From the IMG/VR virus record IMGVR_UViG_2606217117_000014: DNA of 6,696 nt. One strand, 5' to 3'. Shown piece after piece: positions 365 through 6,696 of this stretch. The stretch is from a virus (lineage: Duplodnaviria; Heunggongvirae; Uroviricota; Caudoviricetes). The first letter of the stretch is position 1. Each line of letters begins with the position of its first letter. The translations under genes and the position numbers were made by a program. The notes under the pieces were generated by a model. It saw only the letters and a program-made list of their open reading frames with translations. It was not told where the DNA came from and did no database searches.

Positions 365-739
365 ATGCTCATAGATTTGGTTTTACCTTACCCGCCGACG
401 GTGAACACTTACTGGCGACGCCGTGGCAGCACATATTTTATCTCGGAGGAGGGAAAGCGTTATCGCCGGGCTGTGGCGCTTATTGTTCGCCAGCAGCGGC
501 TGAAATTAAGCCTGTCCGGAAGGCTGGCGATAAAGGTGATTGCAGAGCCACCGGATAAGCGTCGTCGCGACCTGGACAATATCCTGAAAGCACCGCTGGA
601 TGCGCTGACGCATGCGGGAGTGTTAATGGACGATGAGCAGTTTGATGAAATCAATATCGTTCGTGGTCAGCCAGTATCTGGTGGACGTCTGGGGGTGAAG
701 ATTTACCCCATAATGCATGAAGAGCAGGTCAAAAAATGA
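365..739 (+). CDS. rusA: RusA-family Holliday junction resolvase (lambdoid prophage endodeoxyribonuclease)
   Basis: 124 aa. Contains PPDKRRRDLDNILKAPLDALTHAG, matching the recalled RusA catalytic block (DRRRRDLDN...FDALT). N-terminal LPYPPTVNTYW parallels RusA LPWPPSNNRYY. SD-like AGAGGTGA lies 5-6 nt before the ATG. Confidence 0.85.
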   Translation: MLIDLVLPYPPTVNTYWRRRGSTYFISEEGKRYRRAVALIVRQQRLKLSLSGRLAIKVIAEPPDKRRRDLDNILKAPLDALTHAGVLMDDEQFDEINIVRGQPVSGGRLGVKIYPIMHEEQVKK

Positions 740-1557
740 AACTGGAAGATTTACCGAAATACTACTCCCCAAAATCCCCTGGCCTGACCGATGCATCGGC
801 CTCAACGTCAAAAGATGCGCTGAGTATCACTGATGTGATGGCCGCGCAGGGCATGACACAGAATCGGGCTGAGATGGGTTTTTCTGCGTTCCTGGGGAAA
901 ATGGGCATCAGTATGAATGACAGGGTGCGGGCAACAGAATTACTGGCAGATTATGCACTCAGTCGGTGCGATCGTGTGGCGGCGTTGAGAAAACTTCCGG
1001 CAGAAATAAAACCGGTAGTGATGCGCATTATGGCTTCGTACGCTTTTGAGGATTATGCCCGCAGCGCAGCGAGTAAAAAGCAGTGCCCTTGTTGCTATGG
1101 GGAAAAATTTATTGAAAGCATAGTTTTTACAAACAAGGTCCAGTATCCGGATGGTAAGCCGCCGGTATGGGCAAAGTGTACGAAAGGTGTGTATCCGTCT
1201 TACTGGGAAGAATGGAAAAAAGTCAGGGAGGTGGTAAAAGTTGCCTGTCCGGAGTGTGGCGGAAAGGGTGAGGTTTCCACCGCCTGTAAGGATTGCCGTG
1301 GGCGTGGTGTCGCCATTCACCGTGAAGAGTCGGTAAAACGTGGTATGCCTGTTATCAGAGACTGCCAGCGTTGTGGTGGTCGTGGCTATGAAAGACTACC
1401 ATCAACGGAGGCATTTAATGCTATATGCGAGGTGACAAACCAGATAACACGCGCGTCATGGGAAAAAACAGTTAAGAAATTCTATGATGCGCTGGTGACC
1501 CGGTTTGATATTGAAGAAGCATGGGCTGAGCGGCAGTTAAAAAAGGTAACTAGGTAA
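736..1557 (+). CDS. Late-gene antitermination protein Q (QuuQ/Q-like) with DnaJ-type CxxCxGxG zinc-finger repeats
   Basis: 273 aa. Start ATG overlaps the rusA stop (ATGA at 736-739). Lies directly upstream of a lambda-like pR'/tR' pair. N-terminus MKLEDLPKYYSPKSP resembles recalled Qin QuuQ. Three repeats CPECGGKG, CKDCRGRG, CQRCGGRG. Confidence 0.75.
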   Translation: MKLEDLPKYYSPKSPGLTDASASTSKDALSITDVMAAQGMTQNRAEMGFSAFLGKMGISMNDRVRATELLADYALSRCDRVAALRKLPAEIKPVVMRIMASYAFEDYARSAASKKQCPCCYGEKFIESIVFTNKVQYPDGKPPVWAKCTKGVYPSYWEEWKKVREVVKVACPECGGKGEVSTACKDCRGRGVAIHREESVKRGMPVIRDCQRCGGRGYERLPSTEAFNAICEVTNQITRASWEKTVKKFYDALVTRFDIEEAWAERQLKKVTR

Positions 1558-1700: not shown

Positions 1701-1776
1701 GGCCCTTTAGCTCAGTGGTGAGAGCGAGCGACTCATAATCGCCAGGTCGCTGGTTCAAATCCAGCAAGGGCCACCA
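1701..1776 (+). tRNA. tRNA-Ile2 (anticodon CAU, lysidine-type; tRNA-Met not excluded), ileZ-like as in Stx phages
   Basis: Hand-folded cloverleaf: acceptor GGCCCTT/AAGGGCC, D stem GCTC/GAGC, anticodon loop CTCATAA, T arm GCTGG-TTCAAAT-CCAGC, discriminator A, encoded CCA. Close to recalled E. coli ileX. Confidence 0.85.
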
Positions 1777-1876
1777 TCACAAACCGCCATTAGCTTATCA
1801 GGAAGAGCAGACGACGCGATAACAGGGTTGTTGGTGCGGGGGCGGGTCCCCGATGGCGGTCCATTATCGGTATTCA

Positions 1877-1950
1877 GCGTTGTTAGCTCAGCCGGACAGA
1901 GCAATTGCCTTCTAAGCAATCGGTCACTGGTTCGAATCCAGTACAGCGCG
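1877..1950 (+). tRNA. tRNA-Arg (anticodon UCU, reads AGA/AGG), argN/argO-like
   Basis: Acceptor GCGTTGT/ACAGCGC (one G-U pair), D stem GCTC/GAGC, anticodon stem ATTGC/GCAAT with loop CTTCTAA, T arm ACTGG-TTCGAAT-CCAGT, discriminator G. No encoded CCA. Confidence 0.8.
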
Positions 1951-2090
1951 CTATATTCATTCTTCCAGATTCCTTCCGGCAGAGCCTTATACTGAAATAT
2001 ACCTGGCTCAGGATATTGTTGAAAATATTATATGTTTGTCAAAAATAAAAGTTCTGTTAAGTATTGATTGAGTGTTTGTTATACGGTCTA

Positions 2091-2417
2091 ATGGTTTTTT
2101 CAGCATTAAATATTTATCATTCATATGGTGTGGGTAGAGTGAATATTGATGAGGCGTCGGGGTGTTTCATCCTTAGGCAGCGTATTGATATAGTCAATGC
2201 AGCACGAGCAAAGGCCTTCAGCCGTTTGACAGTTTTGTTCTGTACTCCTGATCGTCTTTCGGGAAGAGACGTTATTATTCTGAATAGTGATGCTATTCAG
2301 AGGGTTTGCGATGAGTTCATGGTTGCTAATTCAGAATTATTTGCTCTTGTTCAGGAGTACAACAGAATAGCCAGGACCTGTGGTATGGATGAACTTCGGA
2401 TTACTCATCTGGGGTAG
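2091..2417 (+). CDS. Hypothetical protein, ~108 aa from ATG 2091 (117 aa if TTG 2064 is used), unknown function
   Basis: Open frame to TAG 2415-2417. Candidate promoter TTGTCA (2036-2041), 16-17 nt spacer, TAAGTA/AAGTAT (2058-2064) just upstream. No convincing SD. Occupies the position of stx genes in Stx phages. No recognisable motif. Confidence 0.4.
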   Translation: MVFSALNIYHSYGVGRVNIDEASGCFILRQRIDIVNAARAKAFSRLTVLFCTPDRLSGRDVIILNSDAIQRVCDEFMVANSELFALVQEYNRIARTCGMDELRITHLG

Positions 2418-2497
2418 ATACATATCTGGATTATCACTTGTTACGGTAAAAAGTGATTGCTTACTGTTTTTGTGAGTGGCATTGCAGCAGCCGGATA

Positions 2498-2584
2498 ATG
2501 TCAGTGCTGGCTGACGGTGTGCTGGTGGCGGGTGTGGTGGTTGTTGCTTTCCCGTTGCTGAAAAAGAAAACGCCAGACTGTTAG
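2498..2584 (+). CDS. Candidate small hydrophobic peptide, 28 aa (MSVLADGVLVAGVVVVAFPLLKKKTPDC)
   Basis: ATG 2498 to TAG 2582-2584. One predicted transmembrane-like segment followed by KKK. Weak SD (GGA about 5 nt upstream). Could be a chance ORF in GT-rich DNA. Confidence 0.2.
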   Translation: MSVLADGVLVAGVVVVAFPLLKKKTPDC

Positions 2585-2861: not shown

Positions 2862-2895
2862 TCCTTATGGACTTTGTTGTTTTAGTCCATAAGGA
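2862..2895. repeat. Perfect 12-bp inverted repeat with 10-bp spacer (TCCTTATGGACT-N10-AGTCCATAAGGA)
   Basis: Read directly from the sequence. Overlaps the last about 10 codons and the stop of the minus-strand gene 2865-3200. Confidence 0.75.
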
Positions 2896-3200
2896 CATAT
2901 TTGCAGAGTGCAACGGTTATTAAAGCATTCATTCAATACGTTATCTGTATTTGTAGGACATTCCTGGCTGTTTTTGATTAAATTCCAGAATGTTTTATTG
3001 AATGGTGCTACGTTGTAAATGGTTACAGGTAGCACTTTGTTATTGAGCATGATACCTGTGTGAGTCAGTGTAAATATACTTTCAGGAGGTAAGAAAGCAT
3101 CCGATTGATACCAGATTATTAATTTTATTTTACTCCATATGACTGAAAAAGATATTCCGCATGATGGCTGGATAACTGTATCAATCACAATCCACTTCAT
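2865..3200 (-). CDS. Hypothetical Cys-containing protein, 111 aa, AT-rich moron gene convergent to the late operon
   Basis: Strong SD AAGGAA 6 nt upstream of ATG (plus 3198-3200). A 111-codon open frame in DNA that looks very AT-rich by eye is unlikely by chance. Translation: [18 protein letters not shown]...[10 protein letters not shown]. No recognisable family. Confidence 0.55.
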
Positions 3201-3267: not shown

Positions 3268-3460
3268 CCATAGAGCAGAATTATTTTTCTGATGTTGTTT
3301 ATTGTTTATTTAAATGCAGGGTGGTTTATATCTCGTCTTGTAGTTTATCCATGCATATCTGCTTGATGATGAGGTTTTTATTTAAGGTATGGTTTTGTGT
3401 TTTTTCTGTATTACATGTCAGGTATTTTAAAGAATTATTTTTCAGATGGTGGAAAGAACC

Positions 3461-5422
3461 ATGGCATTTAAACACTATGATGTTGTCAGGGCGGCATCGC
3501 CGTCAGACCTTGCGAAACGACTGACACAAAAACTGAAGGAGGGGTGGCAGCCATTTGGCAGTCCGGTGGCCATCACGCCTTATACCCTGATGCAGGCCAT
3601 TGCGGCGGAAGGTGATGTCACCACACCTGTGGTGGTGAAGCCGTCGGATGGAGAAGGCGCAGTTATCAGCACCACCAGCAACCCGGAGTATTACTTTGTT
3701 GTTGCCCTGGCCGGGCAGTCAAACGGTATGGCGTATGGTGAAGGGCTTCCGCTGCCGGAGACATATGACCGTCCGGACCCGCGTATTAAACAGCTGGCGC
3801 GTCGCAGCACTGTCACGCCGGGTGGTGCGTCCTGTAACTACAATGACATTATTCCTGCGGACCACTGCCTGCATGATGTTCAGGATTTGAGTAAGTTTTC
3901 ACACCCGAAAGCCAGCGCAGCTCAGTATGGATGCGTGGGGCAGGGATTACATATCGCGAAGAAATTGTTGCCGTTTATTCCGGCGAATGCCGGTATTCTT
4001 CTGGTTCCGTGCTGCCGTGGTGGTTCTGCATTTTTGGCGGGCGATGAAGGTACCTTCAGCGAATCCACCGGCGCAAGCGAGACCTCGGCACGCTGGGGTG
4101 TTGATAAGCCACTGTACAAGGACCTGCTTACCCGTACTCAGGCCGCACTGAAGGCCAACCCTAAAAATATTCTGCTTGCAGTGGTCTGGATGCAGGGCGA
4201 GTTTGATTTGAAACAGGGTGCATACGCCACTCAGCCGGGGCTGTTTGATTCCATGGTGGAAAAATATCGTTCTGACCTGTCGGAATTCGGAGGTCAGTGT
4301 CTCGGGGGCTCTCCGTCATCGGTTCCCTGGATTTGTGGCGACACGACCTACTACTGGAAGCAGACTTATTCTTCGCAATACGATGCGGTGTATGGTGCAT
4401 ACAAGACGAAATCCGCAAAAAAAATCTTCTTTGTGCCGTTTATGACGGATGAAAACGGGCGAAATGTGGGTACCAACGAGCCGTCAGAAGATCCGGATGT
4501 TGCGGATATTGGGTATTACGGAGGCGGTGGTCGAACGGACGCCAAAACCTGGACGACGGCCGACCGTAAAACGCATTTTGGATCATGGGCACGTCGTGGG
4601 ATTATTTCCGACCGTCTGGCAACGGCGATTCTTGTGCATGCCGGGAGAAACGCTGAATTCATTACCGGAAAACAGCCTGATACGGTGAAGCCCACCGGAC
4701 CTTCCGGTGAAGGTACGGAGAGAGAGCCGGAAGCCCCGGTCAGTAACCGAACCCTGATGAGTCTGCTGGCGTCCGGCGAAGACCTGGCATCACAGGGCTG
4801 GCGCTATTATCACAAACCGGCGAGCGGAGACAATGTTAACAAAAACATTGCTGAAGCGGTGGTCAGTGATGCGGGGGCTACGGGAGGTAAGGCCCTGCAA
4901 CTGAATAAACCGGAAAACCACATCTGGTTTCTGGAGCATGATGCAGCCGGACAGGGAGTGGAGTTACTGAAGAAGGGGGGACGTGTGAGCGTACGGTTTA
5001 AGTTGCCGGGTTCACTGGTGCCGAATCAGTTTGCCCTGGGCATTTACTGGCAGTTGTCGTCCCTGCCGGAGGGAGTGACGCTGGCAGAGGAAGGCAACGA
5101 CATGCTGATGTCCTTCTTTCTGCAGACGGATGCGACGAACCTGAACGCGATGCACCACAAGAAGCCGAATGCGAAGCTGGAAACGTTCGGGGTCTTTGAT
5201 AACGGATGGCACACACTGGCTTTTGAGTTTGCCGGAAACAACAGCATTCAGGTGACGCCGGTACTGGATGAGAAACGGGGGACGCCGTTCACACTGGTGA
5301 AATCTCCGGCATCAGGGGCGGCGGACAAACTGCAACTGACAGGCATATCAAAGGCGGCGACATATACGCTGCTGATTGACAGTGTGAAGGTGGAAGTGAA
5401 CAACGCGGACATCGCGGCATGA
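3461..5422 (+). CDS. nanS: Prophage sialate O-acetylesterase, NanS-p type (N-terminal DUF1737-like region, SASA/SGNH esterase domain, C-terminal extension)
   Basis: 653 aa from ATG 3461, which has SD GGTGGA 7 nt upstream; the ATG at 3446 has no SD. Block VVALAGQSNGMAYGEG carries the GQSN serine motif of the sialate O-acetylesterase family. Size and position match recalled nanS-p genes downstream of stx. Confidence 0.8.
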   Translation: MAFKHYDVVRAASPSDLAKRLTQKLKEGWQPFGSPVAITPYTLMQAIAAEGDVTTPVVVKPSDGEGAVISTTSNPEYYFVVALAGQSNGMAYGEGLPLPETYDRPDPRIKQLARRSTVTPGGASCNYNDIIPADHCLHDVQDLSKFSHPKASAAQYGCVGQGLHIAKKLLPFIPANAGILLVPCCRGGSAFLAGDEGTFSESTGASETSARWGVDKPLYKDLLTRTQAALKANPKNILLAVVWMQGEFDLKQGAYATQPGLFDSMVEKYRSDLSEFGGQCLGGSPSSVPWICGDTTYYWKQTYSSQYDAVYGAYKTKSAKKIFFVPFMTDENGRNVGTNEPSEDPDVADIGYYGGGGRTDAKTWTTADRKTHFGSWARRGIISDRLATAILVHAGRNAEFITGKQPDTVKPTGPSGEGTEREPEAPVSNRTLMSLLASGEDLASQGWRYYHKPASGDNVNKNIAEAVVSDAGATGGKALQLNKPENHIWFLEHDAAGQGVELLKKGGRVSVRFKLPGSLVPNQFALGIYWQLSSLPEGVTLAEEGNDMLMSFFLQTDATNLNAMHHKKPNAKLETFGVFDNGWHTLAFEFAGNNSIQVTPVLDEKRGTPFTLVKSPASGAADKLQLTGISKAATYTLLIDSVKVEVNNADIAA

Positions 5423-5423
5423 T

Positions 5424-5460
5424 AAAAAAAGCCGCCAGCGGCAGGAATGGAAGCTGGCGG
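5424..5460 (-). terminator. Hairpin with A-tract on its plus-strand 5' side; oriented as an intrinsic terminator for leftward transcription
   Basis: AAAAAAA (5424-5430), stem CCGCCAGC (5432-5439) / GCTGGCGG (5453-5460), 13-nt loop. No T-tract follows on the plus strand. Loop is large, so moderate-low confidence. Confidence 0.35.
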
Positions 5461-5558: not shown

Positions 5559-5741
5559 ATGACATTTATTCATCAGGTAATGCTGTACTTCTGTATGGCA
5601 GTCTGTGTTATGTATCTTCTTTCGGGTGGGTACAGGGCAGTGCGCGATTTCTGGCGCAGGCAGATTGATAAAAGGGCCGCTGAGAGAATCAGCGCCAGTC
5701 AGTCAGCCGGAAGCAAACCCGAAGATCCGCTCATTCCGTAG
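5559..5741 (+). CDS. Hypothetical small membrane protein, 60 aa
   Basis: ATG 5559. One hydrophobic segment (IHQVMLYFCMAVCVMYLLSGGY) followed by a basic/charged tail. Weak SD. An overlapping alternative frame from 5605 is also open, so the call is uncertain. Confidence 0.3.
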   Translation: MTFIHQVMLYFCMAVCVMYLLSGGYRAVRDFWRRQIDKRAAERISASQSAGSKPEDPLIP

Positions 5742-5778: not shown

Positions 5779-5827
5779 ATGTCAGAAATCACATCCCTGG
5801 TCACTGCTGAGGCAGTGAAGGAAGTCC
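5779..5827 (+). pseudogene. 5' fragment (16 codons, MSEITSLVTAEAVKEV) of a gene interrupted by the IS insertion
   Basis: ATG 5779 in an open frame that runs straight into the IS terminus at 5828. The ORF-track continuation past 5828 is IS sequence read in the wrong context. Confidence 0.25.
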
Positions 5828-6696
5828 TGAACCGCCCCGGGTTTCCTGGAGAGTATTTTATCTGTGAACTCAGGCTGCCAGATCATCGTTTCCGATGGAA
5901 GCATAATAAGCTTTTTCTGCTTCTGCCGGAGGAGTATGGCCCAGCCTTTCCAGCAATCGTCGATTGTTATACCAGTCCACCCACGTGAGTGTGGCCAGTT
6001 CCACTTCTGCACGGTTTTTCCAGCTCTTACGGTGTATTACCTCCGCTTTGTAAAGACCATTGATGCTCTCCGCCATCGCGTTGTCATACGAGTCGCCTGT
6101 ACTTCCTGTTGATGCCAGTAATCCGGCTTCCTTAAGCCGCTGTGTGTAGGCCAGCGATACATACTGAGAACCTTTATCACTGTGATGGACCGTGCCGGAC
6201 GGTCGACGGGCCCATAACGCCTGCTCCAGTGCATCCAGCACGAATGTCGTCTCCATGGACGATGAGACCCGCCACCCCACAATGTATCCGGCAAACACAT
6301 CAATGATGAACGCCACATAGACGAAGCCCTGCCATGTGCTGACGTAAGTAAAATCAGCCACCCACAGCTGGTCAGGTCGTTCTGCCACGAACTGACGGTT
6401 TACGCGGTCGCCTGCGGCAACGGCTTTCCGGCTGATGGTCGTACGGACCTTTTTACCCCGGAGAACACCGGCAAGTCCCATAACCGCCATGAGACGTGCC
6501 ACAGTGCATCTGGCCACTCTGATACCTTCCCGTAACAACTGACGCCAGACTTTACGCACACCGTATACCTTGTGATTTTCATCGTATACGCGCTGTATCT
6601 CTTTCTTCAGCCAGTCATCGCGCTGCGCACGGGCACTGCGTTTATCCGGATGATGTCGCTGTTGCTGACAGTGGTAATACGTTGACGGGGCAATAT
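5828..6696 (-). mobile_element. IS3-family insertion sequence (IS629-like), partial; runs off the right edge of the window
   Basis: Terminus TGAACCGCCCCGGGTTTCCTGGAGAG at 5828 matches the recalled IS629/IS3-family terminal inverted repeat. Encloses a DDE transposase OrfB on the minus strand ending 42 bp inside the end. Confidence 0.8.
5870..6696 (-). CDS. IS3-family transposase OrfB (DDE integrase core), N-terminal part outside the window
   Basis: Frame is open from the window edge (hand translation 6560-6696 has no stop) to TGA at plus 5870-5872. Motifs WVADFTYV, HHSDKGSQY, DSYDNAMAES, YKAE are typical DDE transposase blocks. Confidence 0.85.
   Translation of the reverse strand, partial: IAPSTYYHCQQQRHHPDKRSARAQRDDWLKKEIQRVYDENHKVYGVRKVWRQLLREGIRVARCTVARLMAVMGLAGVLRGKKVRTTISRKAVAAGDRVNRQFVAERPDQLWVADFTYVSTWQGFVYVAFIIDVFAGYIVGWRVSSSMETTFVLDALEQALWARRPSGTVHHSDKGSQYVSLAYTQRLKEAGLLASTGSTGDSYDNAMAESINGLYKAEVIHRKSWKNRAEVELATLTWVDWYNNRRLLERLGHTPPAEAEKAYYASIGNDDLAA

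Follow-up and report, generated by a model that had tools for sequence, protein, structure and literature searches.

Proteins of the NanS-p type let lysogens of Escherichia coli, and possibly the phages themselves, exploit the O-acetylated sialic acids of gut mucus, and they have been studied mostly in Shiga toxin (Stx) phages such as 933W and Φ24B. Their architecture of three domains was described already in 2020 and is set out in PMC10462455, all alleles tested (from EDL933, and five from the O104:H4 strain C227-11) proved to be active esterases (PMC8065619), and the tested EDL933 and O104:H4 alleles remove O-acetyl groups from mucin glycans and allow growth on Neu5,9Ac2 (PMC8065619). In Stx phages the gene is furthermore induced together with the late genes and stx under Q/late-gene control (PMC10462455; PMC8065619), and its presence in non-Stx prophages has likewise been noted (PMC10462455). 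The gene considered here lies in a stretch of 6,696 nucleotides from a virus of the Caudoviricetes (IMG/VR record IMGVR_UViG_2606217117_000014), the whole of which is called the window below, and occupies 3461..5422 on the plus strand (653 codons and a stop). Its product is identical to the RefSeq protein WP_001538589.1, named "SASA family carbohydrate esterase". Judged by its sequence, the open reading frame (ORF) is a real and intact prophage gene for a NanS-p-type sialate O-acetylesterase, and we consider it highly probable that it is a functional one, whose product unites an esterase core, a lectin-like module and a DUF1737 domain. The sequence itself shows how the domains are arranged, that the catalytic residues and motifs are present, that two solved structures are homologous and where the gene lies in the genome, whereas we infer that this allele is active as an enzyme, that it binds glycans and capsids, and that it is expressed late or in dependence on Q.

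The ORF listing of the window gives a single long frame at 3446..5422 on the plus strand, encoding 658 amino acids (aa) from the first ATG; the biologically supported start of nanS-p is the ATG at 3461 (MAFKHYD...), which yields the product of 653 aa. This start had been chosen in the initial annotation of the DNA and is borne out both by PGAP, which places the start of the identical protein WP_001538589.1 at the equivalent of 3461, and by the nucleotide homology to 933W nanS-p (L0105), which sets in about 10 nt before the same ATG. The match to phrog_143 extends over the full length of the protein, and Pfam finds DUF1737 at aa 3-50 (E 9e-16), SASA at aa 83-274 (36.2 bits) and DUF6645 at aa 503-616 (E 2e-43), so that DUF1737, a SASA core and a C-terminal domain are present in the layout described for NanS-p (PMC10462455). 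The initial annotation had seen just two parts, an esterase and an extension behind it, and had overlooked the N-terminal DUF1737 domain (aa 3-50) together with the 22-aa linker that follows.

The catalytic core, of the NanS-like SGNH (type II) kind, spans 3677..4633 on the plus strand (aa 73-391, 319 aa) and is matched over this entire length by PDB 3pt5, the E. coli NanS/YjhS structure, with an E-value of 1.9e-118 and 57.6% identity over 314 aligned residues, and its identity to the core of 933W NanS-p is 72%. The Pfam SASA profile (PF03629) is likewise found above threshold (36.2 bits against a cut-off of 24.8), although the match is partial and covers profile positions 7-157 of 226; the GQSN-motif SASA domain of the initial annotation is thereby recovered, with GQSN at aa 85-88 and SASA at aa 83-274. 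Three motifs of the core, all read on the plus strand, may be named. The GQSN of block I (3713..3724) aligns with the GQSN of NanS and contains Ser87 (3719-3721) as the predicted nucleophile and Gln86 as the predicted oxyanion-hole residue, a QGE motif (4193..4201; aa 245-247) lies inside a WMQGEFD stretch kept in NanS and 933W NanS-p, and an RKTH motif (4565..4576; aa 369-372) aligns with the RSSH of NanS and holds His372 (4574-4576), the predicted catalytic base. Indeed Ser87, Gln86 and His372 line up with Ser19, Gln18 and His301 of NanS, so that the catalytic Ser and His are both in place in the alignment (S87 in GQSN, H372 in RKTH). NanS itself works with Ser19 and His301 as active residues and with no catalytic Asp, its oxyanion hole being made up of a Gly and Gln18 (PMC9063846), and by analogy the present core would use a NanS-like Ser-His mechanism without Asp. 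Variation in the His block is accepted within the family, where RSSH, RASH and RPTH occur (PMC10462455).

The region behind the core had been described as an extension of roughly 300 residues, about as long as the catalytic part and of unknown role. The region does exist, but it measures 262 residues (aa 392-653) and hence about 0.8 times the 319-aa core with its linker included and 0.7 times if the folded domain alone is counted, and the role can no longer be called unknown since a homologue has been crystallised (PDB 6yp6) and a Pfam family exists (DUF6645). It opens with linker 2 (4634..4750, plus strand; aa 392-430, 39 aa), which is rich in Pro, Gly, Glu and Thr and in which the PSSPSG motif of Φ24B has become PTGPSG, and it continues into a lectin-like β-sandwich of the concanavalin-like jelly roll type (4751..5419, plus strand; aa 431-653, 223 aa), assigned through 6yp6 and PF20350. 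The core of the DUF6645 family (Pfam PF20350) lies at 4967-5308 on the plus strand (aa 503-616, E 2.4e-43), and 6yp6, which is the C-terminal domain of Φ24B NanS-p, matches aa 464-648 with an E-value of 1.9e-60. Identity to 933W is 59% in the C-terminal domain and about 40% over aa 392-463, linker 2 included. The finding is thus correct but ordinary, because the seemingly extra part of the protein is a lectin-like domain that has already been crystallised; the gene family and the protein are both already catalogued, and the copy in the window adds nothing new in kind.

The notion that this domain binds carbohydrate, voiced as a guess in the initial annotation, agrees with the literature on Φ24B, in which the C-terminal domain is described as a lectin-like jelly roll and predicted to be a carbohydrate-binding module (PMC10462455; PMC8065619), and also with a fold search that led to PDB 2w68. 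For this search the C-terminal domain was modelled with AlphaFold2 (AF2) from an alignment of 19 sequences, giving an all-β fold with a predicted local distance difference test score (pLDDT) of 71.4 and a predicted template modelling score (pTM) of 0.75; a single-sequence AF2 run on the full protein gave a mean pLDDT of 32.8, was unusable and was discarded. When the model of the domain was compared with the PDB by Foldseek, 6yp6 came first with a template modelling score (TM) of 0.82, followed by 2w68, the sialic-acid-binding domain of the Vibrio cholerae sialidase (E 4e-8, TM 0.61/0.69), and further neighbours were the lectin domains of Akkermansia sialidases, the ganglioside-binding Hc fragments of tetanus and botulinum toxin, and the L-type lectins VIP36, Emp46/47 and calreticulin. 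These neighbours back a lectin-type role independently and hint at sialoglycans as ligands, albeit at the level of a modelled fold and with 13-15% identity. A sugar site made up of four aromatic residues, Y510, Y515, Y540 and F611, has been proposed for the Φ24B protein vb_24B_21 (PMC10462455), and the equivalents of the first three are F524, Y529 and F553 here, whereas the F611 position is lost through a one-residue deletion, a pattern common to the subtype to which the domain belongs.

Indeed two clear C-terminal subtypes emerge from the alignment of homologues, and that of the window, which we call subtype A, is set apart by an 11-aa insertion and the altered aromatic patch. Elsewhere in E. 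coli (the partial protein sequences P0009 and P0011) subtype-A domains are also found joined to catalytic cores like that of 933W, which argues that domains have been shuffled within the NanS-p family by recombination at the inter-domain linker. When the C-terminal region was run by HMMER against all of 1.84 billion representative proteins, only 36 matches came back, of which all those with a named source come from E. coli, Shigella or Salmonella and most are NanS-p-like, while a word-indexed protein search with the same domain gave only E. coli NanS-p fragments, the variants being visible by HMMER alone. Going by these matches, the C-terminal module is autonomous yet narrowly distributed. Variant architectures are represented by P0048, P0038, P0046 and P0049, and rare DUF6645 proteins without SASA exist. 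P0038 from Shigella sonnei, a form of Shigella and E. coli, is a NanS-p of 706 aa with an extra C-terminal domain. P0048 (E. coli WP_201478540.1) shows, by eye, two DUF1737 domains followed by DUF6645 and by a further domain, some 110 aa long, which is the same as that of the 706-aa form. P0048 is a singleton cluster, and this esterase-less protein is absent from the sequenced phage records, where only its DUF6645 part was matched, at 30-34% identity.

The exact allele is carried by many E. coli genomes other than those of strains that produce Shiga toxin (STEC), and a 2.3-kb segment with the gene recurs at 100% identity in many complete genomes of E. coli isolates, be they human commensal, clinical or from wastewater; this conservation argues for an intact and maintained gene. 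Among the 5426 complete E. coli genomes searched, a related sequence was detected in 2349, at as many as 8 places in a single genome. The initial annotation had found it worth remarking that the gene is retained even though stx is absent, but presence without stx is the norm and hence unremarkable, given these 2349 genomes and the literature on non-Stx prophages (PMC10462455). A search of 50,697 sequenced phage records gave no allele above about 65% protein identity, or above about 54% in the C-terminal domain, and the allele is a distinct subtype that has so far been met only in chromosomal prophages.

The DUF1737 domain (3467..3610, plus strand; aa 3-50) is matched by Pfam PF08410 with an E-value of 9.4e-16 in the full protein and of 3.8e-17 when the domain is searched alone, and it is 70% identical to its 933W counterpart. 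What such a domain may do is suggested by a preprint on phage Φ24B, according to which gp84, the NanS-p of that phage, is abundant in the virion and gives one of the most intense bands, its DUF1737 forms hexamers plugged into the central hexons of the T=9 capsid with Tyr42 as an anchor, and the rest of the protein is cut away by slow proteolysis at "SSP"-containing linkers (10.64898/2026.04.10.717836). In alignment the Tyr-bearing anchor loop is 3 residues shorter here than in the Φ24B/933W type, and Y41 may be the counterpart of the anchor residue Tyr42. A search of the PDB found no solved DUF1737 structure. The domain is followed by linker 1 (3611..3676, plus strand; aa 51-72, GDVTTPVVVKPSDGEGAVISTT), which is 10.5% identical to that of 933W and lacks SISSP, the proposed autoprocessing motif of Φ24B, reading DVTTP instead. 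Association with a capsid was judged from a single carrier genome, that of the comparison strain SCU-176 (NZ_CP054345.1); the head module of the window's own prophage lies beyond the window. The SCU-176 prophage with the identical allele encodes gpJ and a tape measure protein as well as a gpD homologue (PF02924) and a capsid protein of the gpE family (PF03864). The capsid protein of 933W belongs to PF13252, and BLASTP detected no similarity of the λ-like SCU-176 head proteins to 933W L0115 or L0116.

From these assignments a mode of action may be proposed, in which Ser87 would attack the acetyl ester, His372 would act as the base without a classical Asp, and Gln86 together with a Gly would form the oxyanion hole. 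The core would in this way strip O-acetyl groups from Neu5,9Ac2 and from the O-acetylated sialic acids of mucin glycans, an activity which is expected here on the strength of that documented for its relatives, and the deacetylated sugars would then be open to sialidases and to the Nan catabolic pathway. The C-terminal jelly roll, mounted on a flexible linker, would most likely hold the enzyme on sialoglycans or mucin, and DUF1737 may tether it to virions ahead of a proteolytic release. The enzyme would be synthesised along with the late gene products once the prophage is induced and then be released by lysis, which is presumed because the protein has no signal peptide (the first 50 aa contain no hydrophobic signal-like stretch) and the gene is located between Q and the lysis genes; Q presumably drives late transcription that reads through to nanS-p.

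A number of observations weigh against a functional three-domain esterase of this kind. The confidence of the C-terminal model is moderate (pLDDT 71), one of the four aromatics of the proposed sugar site is deleted and two have changed from Tyr to Phe in this subtype, and according to the literature glycan binding by the domain still lacks experimental proof in the proteins of Φ24B and enterohaemorrhagic E. coli as well (PMC8065619). The allele is furthermore only 60-65% identical to the alleles of sequenced phage records. As to the virion, the proposed SSP autoprocessing motifs are conserved in neither linker, the SCU-176 copy of the allele belongs to a λ-like prophage with a capsid protein of the gpE family that has no detectable sequence similarity to its 933W counterpart, and the decoration of capsids rests on one preprint and one T=9 podovirus (10.64898/2026.04.10.717836). 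Finally, an insertion sequence (IS) downstream of the gene probably uncouples the lysis cassette, so that release by lysis may fail in this particular prophage.

It should also be considered that the protein might serve the phage rather than the lysogen, as an enzyme-plus-lectin displayed on the virion with DUF1737 seated in the capsid hexons, which would aid in sticking to or moving through O-acetylated sialomucin, or would strip O-acetyl groups from bacterial surface polysaccharides and so expose receptors. The chemistry would be the same and the difference would be in who benefits, and we regard this as possible though rather unlikely. It is in agreement with the intense virion band of Φ24B gp84 and the DUF1737 hexamer resolved on its hexons (10.64898/2026.04.10.717836), with a review that raises a role in the phage cycle as well as the removal of O-acetyl groups from lipopolysaccharide (PMC8065619), with the lack of a signal peptide and the late-operon location, and with the sialic acid binding of the fold neighbours of the C-terminal domain; P0048 moreover suggests that a pair of capsid binder and lectin can stand without the esterase. 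The virion data however come from one preprint on one podovirus, while the present allele travels with a λ-like head of another capsid family on which a gpD homologue is already the decoration, its anchor loop is 3 residues shorter, P0048 is a singleton absent from sequenced phage records, and gains in lysogen growth on Neu5,9Ac2 are documented for other alleles (PMC8065619). An extended form of the idea, that virions with λ-like T=7 capsids display this subtype as a "receptor-destroying enzyme plus lectin", with a shortened-loop DUF1737 fitted to gpE-type hexons, a subtype-A domain whose altered aromatic patch and 11-aa insertion make it recognise another sialoglycan than the Φ24B domain, and domain shuffling among alleles that tunes which mucus glycans different temperate phages bind and de-acetylate, is doubtful; if it were true, the shuffling of domains among NanS-p alleles would be the phage counterpart of the viral haemagglutinin-esterases.

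The lectin assignment itself may likewise be questioned, since the C-terminal domain could instead have a structural function, mediate oligomerisation or modulate activity by controlling autoproteolysis or by taking a direct part in catalysis. Binding has after all not been demonstrated experimentally (PMC8065619), the subtype does not strictly keep the proposed aromatic site, and, unlike the promiscuous families of carbohydrate-binding modules, the domain is hardly met outside the NanS-p-type proteins of Enterobacteriaceae (36 representatives among 1.84 billion). Nonetheless we hold this to be improbable, given that the fold neighbours are overwhelmingly lectins or resemble carbohydrate-binding modules with a sialic-acid-binding one as the closest, that three of the four aromatic positions are still aromatic, and that the flexible linker, the shuffling between core subtypes and the occurrence without the esterase are as expected of an autonomous module. 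That the gene is a functionless leftover of a decaying prophage and its intactness incidental is very improbable indeed. An IS3-family element does sit in the DUF826 gene and has probably uncoupled the lysis genes, and the same region of SCU-176 has an IS1 insertion and several pseudogenes, but the frame of 653 codons is uninterrupted with all catalytic motifs kept, many independent genomes have the sequence at 100% identity, and the family persists in 2349 of the 5426 complete genomes in up to 8 places each. A working NanS-p esterase with a lectin-like module thus remains the reading that we prefer, and the copy in the window exemplifies a family that is widespread outside STEC and whose three domains are shuffled into subtypes. 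The subtype-A domain with its altered putative sugar patch would be a reasonable candidate for comparing glycan specificity, and the allele would equally be one for asking whether DUF1737 decorates λ-type capsids.

The order of the window, DUF968-RusA-Q-tRNAs ... nanS-p-DUF1378-DUF826 (the last truncated), is that of a lambdoid late region and matches the canonical order Q ... nanS-p-DUF1378-DUF826-holin, and in SCU-176 the same segment is continued by genes for holin, lysozyme, terminase and a λ-like head and tail. The DUF968 and RusA genes, identified by Pfam, lie upstream of the antiterminator gene Q (736..1557, plus strand; Antiterm PF03589, E 2.2e-54), just downstream of which there is a terminator-like hairpin (1638-1657). 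The following tRNA block (1701-1951, plus strand) is homologous to the ileZ-argN-argO block of 933W: the first tRNA has the anticodon CAT and is identical to 933W ileZ, being called Met by ARAGORN and Ile by PGAP, argN has decayed to an unrecognisable remnant, and an argO-like tRNA-Arg(TCT) is retained. About 50 nt past the latter, in the slot of stx, the homology to 933W ends, and it resumes at the start of nanS-p; that stx is absent, as stated in the initial annotation, is therefore confirmed, the homology breaking off where stx would begin. In this slot lies an ORF of phrog_2873 (2064-2417, plus strand; 117 aa) with no Pfam match, which is intact in the window and interrupted by IS1 in SCU-176, and it is followed by a small ORF (2453-2584, plus strand; 43 aa) at a position corresponding to a DUF3927 gene annotated in SCU-176. 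Positions 1-2787 of the window, comprising DUF968, RusA, Q, the tRNAs and the phrog_2873 ORF, are 99.3% identical to phage mEp460_ev081, which then goes on with unrelated genes and has no nanS-p annotated in the next 4 kb, and there is therefore a mosaic junction near 2787.

[quoted passage not shown] An iraM-like anti-adaptor gene (2865-3200, minus strand; NCBIfam NF007393, 162 bits, the cut-off being 121) is found in a low-GC island (33-38% GC) where Stx phages have stx, and lies head-to-head with nanS-p across an AT-rich spacer of 260 bp. No promoter-like consensus site was found on the plus strand of this spacer, which is weak evidence because the promoter scan was at chance level overall (7 sites found, 6.4 expected).

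Immediately past the nanS-p stop there is a GC-rich hairpin with a T-run on the minus strand (5432-5444), which resembles a terminator for leftward transcription; on the plus strand an A-run precedes it and there is no T tail. An intact DUF1378 gene (5559-5741) and the beginning of a DUF826 gene (start at 5780) follow, the latter being cut after codon 17 by the inverted repeat, at about 5829, of an IS3-family (IS1203/IS629-like) element whose OrfB lies at 5870-6559 on the minus strand. The initial annotation had placed nanS-p between a convergent moron and an IS, which holds in part only: the iraM-like gene is divergent from nanS-p and convergent just with the Q-driven transcript coming from upstream, and the IS is not adjacent but begins 406 bp beyond the nanS-p stop within DUF826, with DUF1378 and the first 17 codons of DUF826 intervening. 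The junction of DUF826 and the IS is absent from all 5426 complete E. coli genomes searched, the best matches being in two pieces at 92-93% identity, and the insertion therefore looks peculiar to this strain. By it, nanS-p and DUF1378 are probably cut off from the genes for holin and lysis.

Among known systems the NanS-p proteins of 933W (L0105/z1466) and Φ24B (vb_24B_21, i.e. gp84) are the closest, having the same domain order and catalytic motifs as the protein of the window and being encoded at the same place, with Q and the tRNAs before the gene and DUF1378, DUF826 and the holin gene after it. The length is also similar (645 aa against 653 aa here), and the identity to the 933W protein is 63% overall. 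The window differs from both phages in that its C-terminal domain is of the other subtype, with the 11-aa insertion, the equivalents of Y510F and Y540F and the deletion of F611, in that the SSP linker motifs and an upstream stx are missing, and in that the allele is carried in SCU-176 by a λ-like prophage of the siphovirus type, whereas 933W and Φ24B are podoviruses. Chromosomal NanS (YjhS, 3pt5), the 9-O-acetyl-N-acetylneuraminate esterase of E. coli, is homologous to the core over its full length and shares the Gln-Ser of GQSN as well as the catalytic His, but it consists of the core alone (337 aa in the PDB chain) without DUF1737 or a lectin-like C-terminal domain, and it belongs to the nan regulon whereas the gene of the window belongs to a prophage late region.

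The V. cholerae sialidase module (2w68) and the lectin-like domains of Akkermansia are, like the C-terminal domain, β-sandwich modules on enzymes that act on sialoglycans, but with 13-15% identity the likeness is one of fold only and does not by itself reveal the ligand specificity. The V. cholerae module is known as CBM40, the family not being named in the search output. A functional analogy, drawn from published knowledge, is finally offered by the haemagglutinin-esterases of influenza C virus, betacoronaviruses and toroviruses, membrane glycoproteins in which an SGNH sialate-O-acetylesterase and a lectin are combined on a virus particle. In the fold of these proteins the haemagglutinin domain is inserted (PMC9063846) and the lectin thus sits within the esterase, whereas that of the window protein is appended to it after a linker.

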